Source of the DNA: Escherichia phage VpaE1_ev035
Strand: one strand, 5' to 3'
Sequence record: LR699048
Length of the DNA: 64,000 nt
The position numbers and the translations under genes are program-made. Positions within the stretch are counted from its first letter, which is position 1. Each line of letters begins with the position of its first letter. Shown here in pieces: positions 58,907 to 60,861 of this stretch. The notes beneath the pieces are model-generated. The model was not told the DNA's origin and did not search any database. It worked only from the letters and a program-made list of their open reading frames with translations.

Positions 58907-59127
58907 AATGACCTCAAAGTTATATTAAATTTTGTATTACATTGAGTATAAAAATAAGCTATAACACCTGACTTGTCAACAGATTTTATAGCTTATTTGG
59001 CAGATTTTTTATAAGGCTACTGCCATCCTTCCATACCAAACCTCACCTGACCTCGCCTAACCCTACCTTACTCCACCATACAGCACCTTATTAAAACACC
59101 CTGTTTAAAGACCTTTTAAAAAGGTAA

Positions 59128-59165
59128 GTCTCATTTTAATGTAGCTGAGACTAACTACCCATACC
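59128..59165. repeat. hairpin element copy 1 (GTCTC-ATTTTAATGTAGCT-GAGAC + AACTACCCATACC)
   Basis: Inverted repeat with conserved 14-nt loop. Confidence 0.55.
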
Positions 59166-59258
59166 TCACCCTACCAGACCCTACCAGACCAGACCTTACC
59201 CTACCAGACCCTACCGAACATCACTTAAAAACCCTCTTAGAAGACTCTTAAGTGATGT

Positions 59259-59297
59259 AATCGAATTTTAATGTAGCTCCGATTAACTACCCATACC
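59259..59297. repeat. hairpin element copy 2 (AATCG-AATTTTAATGTAGCTC-CGATT + AACTACCCATACC)
   Basis: Same loop and tail as copy 1 but stem arms changed in a compensatory way. Confidence 0.55.
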
Positions 59298-59375
59298 TCA
59301 CCTCACCCAACCATACCATGCCTTGCCAGACCGCACCTTACCTCATTAAAAGACCCTCTTAAAAGACCTTTTAAA

Positions 59376-59396
59376 AAGGAGCCTCCGAAGAGGCTA
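59376..59396 (-). terminator. rho-independent terminator (minus strand)
   Basis: GAGCCTC-CGAA-GAGGCT hairpin; on minus strand followed by U5. Confidence 0.55.
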
Positions 59397-59405
59397 CTAG
59401 TCAAC

Positions 59406-59846
59406 TTAGAAAGGTTTTCTACGTTGCTTGTTAATGTTAGCTTTCATAGCAGCTAAATGGTTTTGCTGTTCAATCAGTCGTGAACGTTCTTGATGACTAA
59501 GCGCCATAGTGTTCACATTCTCAATTGCTTGAGTGGCTTGCTTTAAAGCTCGACCAATCTTACCAGACATTTTGCGTTTTGCAATAGTTGCTTGATGCTT
59601 AGGTTCAACCACACGATAACCAACACCCATTGAAGCAACCAGATAAATCTTCTCTTCTTTAAGAAGCTTTTCAATAAACTTCTCAAGTCGGTTTAGACGT
59701 GTAAGTGCATAAGCCTTCATTTCATCTTCGTACTTAACAATGTCACCTTGATAAGTTGGCTTCACAATACCTAAGAAGGTGTCCATCTCGGAATGTGATA
59801 CAGTGTCGCCGTAACTAAACTTTGCTGCTAATGCTTTTGTATTCAT
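59406..59846 (-). CDS. hypothetical protein (first gene of repeat-flanked two-gene module)
   Basis: ORF track, 146 aa, basic C-terminus. Confidence 0.5.
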   Translation of the reverse strand: MNTKALAAKFSYGDTVSHSEMDTFLGIVKPTYQGDIVKYEDEMKAYALTRLNRLEKFIEKLLKEEKIYLVASMGVGYRVVEPKHQATIAKRKMSGKIGRALKQATQAIENVNTMALSHQERSRLIEQQNHLAAMKANINKQRRKPF

Positions 59847-59848
59847 AA

Positions 59849-60436
59849 TTAAACGTTACCTTCTGAAATAACTTCTACAGAAAAACGACCAAAGCGTGGA
59901 CGCCAATCACCTACACCACAAAGGTTACCAGCATTTTCCAGAACCATCAGAAGTTCCTCTTTGGTGATTTGCTCTTCATCAAACATCAAACCAAACTCTA
60001 CAGACCAGTCACGGAAGATTGGACGGTAGCTCATAACTCGTGCTGTACCAATCTTAACAGACTTAGCATAGATAAAGTCTGGATTCTTAGCAAGTTCTTG
60101 TGGGTTTGCTGGACAGTTCTTGATAGTCATTGGGAAGACTACATCTGTCAGCATAATGGCTCGGTCAATTACCTTACCAAGTTTGTTGAGTTTTGCACCA
60201 GACTTGATACAAGCCTCAATCATCTCACCGTTCATAACAAAACCAAGTTGCTCATCGTAGTAACAAGAAGTTACCAGTTGGCTTTCTGCTAAGAGCGCAT
60301 AGTCTTCGTCAGTCTTTTTACGTTTACTGGACAGAGACTTGTGATATTTTGTCAGAGGGTTTAATGGGTCTGACAACGTATCGTTATGGCTCAAGAAAGG
60401 ACGAGTACCAGTGATTTTGATATTTAGCAGTTTCAT
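59849..60436 (-). CDS. hypothetical protein (second gene of repeat-flanked two-gene module)
   Basis: ORF track frame 59849..60451 (GTG); ATG at 60434-60436 with GGAG RBS chosen. Confidence 0.5.
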
Positions 60437-60499
60437 AGCATTTAGCTCCACACTTTAGTTGATTGTTAAGTTGTTTGTAAAGAACCCTCAACAGAAGAC

Positions 60500-60850
60500 T
60501 CTTTAGAAACTTGGTAGATTTTTAACGTGGCTACTACCATCCACCCATACCTCACATCACCATACCATACCATACCATACCTGACCGGACCTAACCAAAC
60601 TCCACAGCACCATACATCACATCACACAACCTTATTAAAAGACCCTGTTTAAAGACCCTTTAAAAAGGTAAGTCTCATTTTAATGTAGCTGAGACTAACT
60701 ACCCATACCAAACAGCACCGCACTATGCCTTACCCCACCTCACCGAGCCTCGCCCCACATCACTTAAAAACCCTTTTCAAAGACTCTTAAGGGATGTTGG
60801 TGAGTACCCGTTGGTTTATGCTGCTCAGTATACTCACCAAATTTTCTATG
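60500..60850. repeat. intergenic repeat region B (direct repeat of region A), with (CCATA)n microsatellite
   Basis: CCATACCATACCATACCATACC; same conserved blocks and hairpin element as region A. Confidence 0.65.
60672..60708. repeat. hairpin element copy 3 (identical to copy 1)
   Basis: GTCTCATTTTAATGTAGCTGAGACTAACTACCCATACC. Confidence 0.55.
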
Positions 60851-60861
60851 TCAACAACTTT

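Follow-up and report, generated by a model that had tools for sequence, protein, structure and literature searches.

The genome of Escherichia phage VpaE1_ev035 (record LR699048; the 64,000 nucleotides analysed are called the window) almost certainly carries a type II VIPR (Viral Interference Programmable Repeat) locus of the SUSP1 clade. The predicted locus lies on the minus strand at 58998-60854 and is composed of vipr, vap1, two guide RNA (vrRNA) genes upstream of them (U1 and U2) and three downstream (D1 to D3). An earlier note, made from the sequence alone, was right that the region is unusual. It offered three meanings for the repeats on both sides of the two protein genes, namely duplicated regulatory regions, recombination boundaries of a mobile module and binding sites for a regulator, none of which names the elements as vrRNA genes of a VIPR system. 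The locus is a further instance of an already known system. New here are the assignment, the coordinates of five vrRNAs, the predicted targets of four of them, and the picture of presence, absence and orphan arrays in Felixounavirus.

First reported in 2026 preprints, VIPR is an RNA-guided system for silencing genes that resembles CRISPR, and an origin earlier than that of CRISPR has been proposed by its discoverers (10.64898/2026.04.26.720920). According to the same preprint, a VIPR locus contains vipr, which encodes a minimal RAMP protein, and vap, with long intergenic regions on either side. The vrRNAs are ~100 nt long and consist of 9-16 YNNGG repeats, in which GGY is conserved and NN is hypervariable, and those of type II end in a constant 3' tail, whose conserved fold contains a pseudoknot (10.64898/2026.04.26.720920). 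In phage SUSP1, expression of the vrRNAs, their co-purification with Vipr and repression of transcription were shown; vap1 is predicted to encode a DNA binder and enhances repression. Most guides of the SUSP1 clade target an E. coli satellite phage, which has a baseplate-hub gene in common with SUSP1 (10.64898/2026.04.26.720920). A companion cryo-electron microscopy preprint identifies the GGY trinucleotides as the Vipr-binding sites in the RNA (10.64898/2026.04.26.720927).

The two protein-coding genes claimed by the earlier note were both found on the minus strand (Table 1). Pfam, PHROGs and PADLOC returned no function for either protein, and the identification came solely via a sequence search of solved structures. 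A PDB-sequence profile search with the 195-aa protein matched a single entry, 36pp, "SUSP1 Vipr protein" (E=2e-82), with 98% identity across all 195 residues in a single-sequence comparison, and a full-text search for that entry name led to the two 2026 bioRxiv preprints. The 195-aa protein shows the minimal RAMP organization of Vipr, with an RRM core, a G-loop and a thumb, and belongs to a large family of ~190-aa proteins from phages and prophages (520 matches). The 146-aa protein has no match in Pfam, PADLOC or PDB, and its homologues are limited to this phage group, so that no alignment was usable for structure work. It shares 99.3% identity with the product of the gene that follows vipr in phiSUSP1 (locus L018). 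Based on this synteny and identity, we assign the 146-aa gene as the predicted vap1 orthologue.

Megablast places the region in Felixounavirus (Ounavirinae), with 259 phage records matched, and Escherichia phage vB_EcoM_ULIM8 is the closest relative of the window (99.6% identity). Every gene at ~55-64 kb is on the minus strand, and the locus is therefore read on that strand. In this direction the order is DNA ligase, intergenic region B (425 nt), the 195-aa gene, the 146-aa gene, intergenic region A (499 nt) and a 127-aa gene. The long direct repeats reported by the earlier note are real. The longest spans 170 nt with 77% identity (59031-59200 versus 60575-60744), repeat families of 81-104 nt occur in 4-5 copies, and a 23-nt linker motif is present in 3 copies, compared with none in 100 shuffles. 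The repeats are confined to the two intergenic regions, as judged from the window and the remaining 25 kb of the closest genome.

The CA-rich tracts described by the earlier note are also real, but the informative strand is the minus strand, on which they read (GGYNN)n with a 5-nt period that had been missed; the label "G-poor" holds for part of the tracts and not for the rest. On the minus strand the tracts form five arrays of 11-18 pentamers (12, 18, 11, 13 and 12 units in U1, U2, D1, D2 and D3), each with a conserved GGY and a hypervariable NN. The 5-nt period is strict: for lags of 5, 10 and 15 nt, the autocorrelation of G is 0.30, where 0.20 would be expected. In vipr-carrying relatives, 80% of 901 units are perfect YNNGG repeats. 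The tracts are only 60-68% identical among relatives, versus 97-99.8% for the tails and linkers and 95-97% for the neighbouring genes, and all tract lengths leave a remainder of 3 on division by 5, which indicates that they change by whole pentamers. The variable units of U1, for example, give the guide GG GA TC GA GG AA AT GC GC TT AT. The tracts thus have the composition published for vrRNAs, with one of the five above the published range of length. The (CCATA)4 microsatellite that the earlier note saw in region B was confirmed at 60560-60579. The 99.6%-identical phage ULIM8 has (GGTAT)2 where U2 of the window has (GGTAT)4, so that the microsatellite is explained as a two-unit slippage within a guide. 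The combination of a conserved GGY, a scrambled NN and a conserved structured 3' end is unlike a microsatellite, an operator array or a terminator.

Each tract is followed by a hairpin tail. Three copies of the loop ATTTTAATGTAGCT are present (59133, 59265 and 60677), and a search of the 64 kb with 0-1 mismatch gave no others. Copy 2 has the stem AATCG/CGATT and the other two have GTCTC/GAGAC, just as the earlier note had them. Its count of three holds for that loop; in total there are five copies with four stem types (H1 to H4), of which the two diverged ones had been missed, and the loop core GCYACRTTAAAA is common to all five. The proposed covariation of the stem was borne out when 24 distinct hairpin sequences from relatives were aligned without gaps. 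Paired bases fill 87% of the stem cells, compared with 66% in shuffles (0/500 as high) and 22-43% with slid partners, and 6 of the 8 stem pairs have changed on both sides. Also missed by the earlier note, four bases 5' of the stem pair with the start of the loop. This second helix is 99% paired, 3 of its 4 pairs show compensatory changes and 0 of 500 shuffles equal it, which makes the element a pseudoknotted hairpin, as in the conserved 3' tail of type II vrRNAs. Slid controls for the hairpin and the second helix pair at 25-43%. On the opposite strand, the G.U pairs of H2 would turn into A.C mismatches, which indicates the sense (minus) strand as the strand that folds. The possibility that H1 has a longer stem (GGTA...TACC) and, together with a T run, forms an intrinsic terminator was dropped, since TACC to CACC variants break the pairing.

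Motif mapping in the window and 20 distinct relatives yielded a single grammar. On the sense strand, the upstream half reads P (promoter), Y, tract, H1, X, tract, H3, leader Z, 195-aa gene and 146-aa gene, and the downstream half reads terminator-like hairpin, X, tract, H2, Y, tract, H1, X, tract, H4 and the promoter of the next gene. The X, Y and Z linkers fold into hairpins with several G.U pairs and free loops. In some relatives (L006, L009, L010 and L017, at ~4190-4260 in each), the Y hairpin has an insertion, TAAATTATATTCGATAGAGTATCTCATAG, of ~35 nt in its loop, with the stem intact. Global RNA folding gave z = -4.2 for region A and z = -1.3 for region B; with the latter value, folding energy alone is not decisive.

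Table 1. Predicted features of the VIPR locus and its flanks (window positions)
Feature	Position	Strand	Description
DNA ligase	60862-61998	minus	heads the gene order
Promoter P	60827..60854	minus	sigma-70-type, TTGACA-16-TATACT; just after the ligase stop; 11/12 consensus positions
Y linker hairpin	60758..60797	minus	before vrRNA U1; stem conserved, loop variable among relatives
vrRNA U1 repeat tract	60703..60762	minus	12 YNNGG units
vrRNA U1 3' tail	60670..60702	minus	type H1, AGTCTCA/TGAGACT; pseudoknot GUAG/CUAC
X linker hairpin	60630..60668	minus	
vrRNA U2 repeat tract	60545..60634	minus	18 units, several degenerate; contains (GGTAT)4, which is (CCATA)4 on the other strand
vrRNA U2 3' tail	60512..60544	minus	type H3, TGGTAG/CTACCA; pseudoknot GUGG/CCAC
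vipr	59849-60436	minus	195-aa RAMP protein, predicted vrRNA binder
vap1 orthologue (putative)	59406-59846	minus	vipr-accessory protein, 146 aa; directly downstream of vipr
Terminator-like hairpin	59380..59395	minus	AGCCTCTTCGGAGGCT followed by a T run; after vap1
vrRNA D1 repeat tract	59291..59345	minus	11 units
vrRNA D1 3' tail	59258..59290	minus	type H2, TAATCGGA/TTCGATTA; one G.U pair
vrRNA D2 repeat tract	59159..59223	minus	13 units
vrRNA D2 3' tail	59126..59158	minus	type H1
vrRNA D3 repeat tract	59031..59090	minus	12 units
vrRNA D3 3' tail	58998..59030	minus	type H4, TGGCAG/CTGCCA; pseudoknot AAGG/CCUU
Promoter-like site	58951..58979	minus	TTGACA-17-TATTTT, of gene 58523-58906; marks the locus end
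127-aa gene	58523-58906	minus	next gene beyond the locus

A search was performed for the satellite in 5,426 complete E. coli genomes, using the window gene at 45376-46173, which follows the tape-measure gene, as query. A chromosomal gene annotated as "phage baseplate protein" that matches the first ~560 nt of the query (up to ~94%) is carried by 474 of these genomes. Eight loci were examined (L053-L060). Each contains an element of ~11 kb (e.g. L053, 2991-14399) with genes for a serine recombinase, an HNH endonuclease or methylase, a tape-measure protein and a baseplate protein, inserted either between yciI and tonB or in a DUF72 gene beside yecD. This element fits the satellite of the VIPR preprint (10.64898/2026.04.26.720920). 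A satellite in L056 has a 13-unit GGYNN tract of its own at 3164-3228 (minus strand), followed by a tail identical to H3, GGGTGGATGGTAGTAGCCACGTTAAAAATCTACC, with no vipr annotated in the element; this tract could use the Vipr of the helper phage.

Following the methods of the preprint, each GGY of a guide was converted into one wildcard and both strands of the satellites were scanned. With the first unit included, the best matches at a skip of 1 nt are 21/24 for U1, 19/22 for D1, 22/24 for D3, 20/26 for D2 and 24/36 for U2. The number of permuted guides that equal these scores is 0 of 200 for U1, D1 and D3, 2 of 200 for D2 and 24 of 200 for U2, and skips of 0, 2 or 3 give U1, D1, D2 and D3 15-18 matches. 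Without the conserved first unit, the best fractions at skip 1 are 0.86 (U1), 0.90 (D1), 0.83 (D2) and 0.91 (D3), compared with 0.60-0.80 at the other skips. The predicted target sites are L053 13195-13229, L057 7540-7568, L060 9879-9913 and L058 6491-6522. U1 matches the recombinase gene of the satellite in L053, with the skipped base at codon position 3. D1 matches an intergenic part of the satellite in L057 and L053 (18/20 at skip 1). D2 matches the satellite tape-measure gene (20/24) with the skip on the wobble position, and the same site is matched 20/20 by a related guide from L011. D3 matches an open reading frame (ORF) of the L058 satellite (20/22 without the first unit), again with the skip on the wobble position. 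The U2 allele of ULIM8, with (GGTAT)2, matches the satellite recombinase gene at 26/30. All matches of the good guides are inside the satellite, and the 4 of 4 that fall in ORFs (recombinase, tape measure and a 128-aa ORF) skip codon position 3. In the 64 kb of the phage itself, no guide match reaches 0.8 (best 0.75). Among relatives, 44 of 54 distinct guides match at 0.80 or above at skip 1, compared with 0.61-0.80 at other skips. Natural VIPR targets agree with at least 80% of the NN bases at a 1-nt skip, are typically located in competing mobile elements and have the skipped base at the wobble position. Targets of this kind were identified for four of the five guides of the window.

These matches suggest how the locus may act. 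From the mechanism given in the preprints, one Vipr protomer would bind each pentamer and lock away the GGY bases, and the exposed NN dinucleotides would pair with double-stranded DNA, with every third target base skipped. The resulting R-loop triplex would block transcription, an effect that Vap1 would enhance. The four guides complementary to genes of the satellite would then direct the locus to silence it. Since the satellite carries Felix-like tape-measure and baseplate genes, the silencing of a parasite of the phage is the most likely role of the locus. The idea of binding sites for a regulator, put forward in the earlier note, agrees with this in that GGY is a protein-binding element according to the cryo-electron microscopy preprint; the sites, however, would be in RNA and bound by Vipr, and are not DNA operators.

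Several points weigh against this assignment. The two source papers (10.64898/2026.04.26.720920 and 10.64898/2026.04.26.720927) are preprints. U2 has 18 units, above the published 9-16, of which several are degenerate, and its best match in the eight satellites is 24/34 (0.71). D2 is marginal, as 2 of 200 permutations equal its score when the first unit is included. The guides were scanned against 8 of the 474 satellite-bearing genomes. The vap1 assignment has synteny and identity as its whole basis. For the downstream array, which follows the terminator-like hairpin (59380-59395), no separate promoter could be recognised.

Promoter P is found at the same place in all relatives and is likely to drive the upstream vrRNAs and vipr-vap. 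Its -10 box overlaps with an 8-bp inverted repeat, GGTGAGTA...TACTCACC (60793-60832), which might serve as an operator or, in transcripts that read through from the ligase gene, fold into an RNA hairpin. At the other end of the locus, the promoter of gene 58523-58906 has its -35 box between the arms of a 19-nt inverted repeat (58952-58998) with 89% complementarity, and a gene for a helix-turn-helix regulator is nearby at 58017-58346. A sigma-70 or phage-specific promoter in each unit was also considered and rejected, as the units contain no such consensus and the motifs do not recur in the rest of the genome. By the latter observation, the duplicated regulatory regions of the earlier note are not supported.

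The strong promoter upstream, the location among replication genes and the capacity of (GGTNN)n to form two-tetrad quadruplexes would also suit G-rich non-template tracts that act as DNA, either as an R-loop or G-quadruplex replication origin or as a GT-rich, Chi-like recombination hotspot. We give such a DNA-level function next to no chance. The Chi site GCTGGTGG is absent from the region, even with one mismatch allowed, and Chi-like hotspots were discarded. The cumulative GC skew peaks at ~52-54 kb, where the gene orientation changes, and not at 59-61 kb. In Kolesnikvirus phages of Erwinia, Cronobacter and Hafnia (L050-L052), the ligase gene abuts the next gene, followed by DHFR and ThyA, without the whole region; a replication origin, iterons and an R-loop were rejected on the basis of this arrangement and of the missing skew turn. 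The G.U pairs of the tails point to a fold of the sense strand, and a function as DNA leaves the target matches unaccounted for. The absence from Kolesnikvirus of the entire block, from the vrRNAs to the helix-turn-helix regulator, indicates that only the Felixounavirus, Mooglevirus and Suspvirus lineages have the VIPR locus.

Among known systems, the locus is most similar to the type II VIPR of phage SUSP1 (PDB 36pp), with a 98% identical Vipr, a neighbouring putative vap1, vrRNAs that are built of GGY/NN pentamers with a pseudoknotted tail and flank the protein genes, and predicted targets in the same kind of satellite with the skip on the wobble position. Applied to phiSUSP1 (L018), our unit calls give one vrRNA upstream and three downstream, in agreement with the number and placement of the four vrRNAs detected by small-RNA sequencing in the preprint. 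Unlike SUSP1, the window has five vrRNAs, two upstream and three downstream, its guide sequences differ, and its U2 has 18 units with (GGTAT)4, where the closest relative has (GGTAT)2. The effector backbone is comparable to that of class 1 CRISPR-Cas, in which a RAMP filament (Cas7/Csm3/Cmr4) assembles on the CRISPR RNA. In contrast to class 1 CRISPR-Cas, the window has a single small protein at this locus, no repeat-spacer array and no adaptation genes such as cas1 or cas2; the units are 120-160 nt long with low-complexity pentamer tracts, and the neighbours are ligase, vipr, vap1 and small hypothetical genes. The VIPR guide is also noncontiguous, with 2 of every 5 RNA bases reading 2 of every 3 DNA bases, and its outcome is silencing instead of cleavage, according to the preprint.

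A search of related phages for the two-gene module, which the earlier note had proposed, revealed a presence/absence polymorphism. Among GenBank phages, searches with the vipr-vap DNA and with the Vipr protein each identified 117 Ounavirinae records, out of ~258 Felixounavirus-level records with the ligase gene at 80% identity or more, and the repeat region is found in 230 records. About half of the Felixounavirus genomes are without vipr-vap, and the corresponding site retains one or two vrRNA units; in the vipr-less loci L032, L036, L042, L047 and L061-L064, these units are located between the ligase and the 127-aa gene. Four IMG/VR contigs found via the hairpin motif have the ligase and 127-aa genes without vipr-vap. 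The single intergenic region of the module-less contigs reads P-Y-tract-H1-X-tract-H4, which is the expected product of recombination between an upstream X-tract unit and a downstream one. The vipr-less state occurs on ligase backgrounds 89-100% identical to that of the window, so that loss, gain or exchange must have taken place more than once.

These observations bring to mind the promoter-early stem-loop (PeSL) cassettes of T4-type phages, which are repeated, structured intergenic elements, composed of a promoter and a stem-loop, that flank accessory genes and allow modules to be gained or lost through homologous recombination. The units of the window are likewise repeated and structured and flank accessory genes; unlike PeSLs, they have no promoter consensus (sigma-70-type sites occur only at the locus ends, at 60854-60827 and 58979-58951) and they would encode guide RNAs. 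We regard it as very improbable that the repeats are merely PeSL-like regulatory or recombination cassettes that shuffle the two-gene module and have no RNA-guide function. Such cassettes would account for the polymorphism bounded by the repeats, for the variable number of units among relatives (1-3 downstream and 2-3 upstream) and for a module DNA that is more uniform (95-100% identity) than the ligase gene (86-100%). They leave unexplained the conserved GGY with its hypervariable NN, the 5-nt steps in length, the wobble-phased satellite matches at skip 1 and the enclosed gene for a RAMP protein of solved structure, Vipr; sigma-70 consensus sites in the units are lacking as well. With the repeats read as vrRNA genes, the units are still long, near-identical direct repeats, and thus substrates for recombination that may lead to loss or exchange of vipr-vap among Felixounaviruses. 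The recombination boundaries of the earlier note therefore hold as regards the polymorphism and its junctions, as a secondary property of elements that are themselves predicted guide-RNA genes.

The vipr-less arrays differ in their state of preservation. In two-unit vipr-less loci, 83% of the units are perfect YNNGG repeats, versus 80% in vipr-carrying phages, and the guides still match the satellite at 0.86-0.89 at skip 1. In the one-unit vipr-less phages EC6, phiWec172, Si3 and GEP101, the tracts are more degenerate (61% perfect units), and the single parseable guide among the four has no good satellite match (0.72). The sample of vipr-less arrays is small. The simplest reading of these orphan arrays is a recent loss of vipr-vap followed by decay. 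A less probable, somewhat speculative possibility is that orphan guides function without a resident Vipr, either loaded in trans by a co-infecting vipr-carrying phage or as decoys that titrate the Vipr of a rival. If so, guide arrays and effector would be separable, exchangeable parts of a population-level system. Orphan arrays were not found in the main text of the discovery preprint (10.64898/2026.04.26.720920).

An Rfam scan of the window at gathering score returned 24 tRNA matches only, none of them in 58.9-60.9 kb, and a known RNA family was thus discarded for the repeats; a cluster of 24 tRNA genes is located at 26231-31440 on the plus strand. Elsewhere in the window, a non-coding stretch of ~450 nt (15870-16320) occurs at a switch of gene orientation. 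Its plus strand is purine-rich and almost free of C, with reiterated TAGAGAG, TAAGAGG and TTAGAAGG and no GGYNN tract. The Felix O1 genome paper lists other repeats, and those of the locus are not among them; the PhageMaP paper on Bas63 has nothing on the intergenic region of the locus, and a literature search returned no relevant transcriptome papers.

VIPR represents RNA-guided recognition of DNA with a noncontiguous code, and the window offers a natural case in the widely used Felix O1-like coliphages, with five guides whose predicted targets can be read directly from the sequence. The assignment is also of value for annotation, as hundreds of Felixounavirus records call the genes "hypothetical" and leave the vrRNA regions unannotated or label them "repeat_region". 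The turnover of such systems can be studied through the arrays that lack vipr and through the loss of the effector by way of the repeats. Collectively, the guides predict which E. coli strains bear a satellite that the phage is armed against, which may be relevant to host range and to the design of therapeutic phages.

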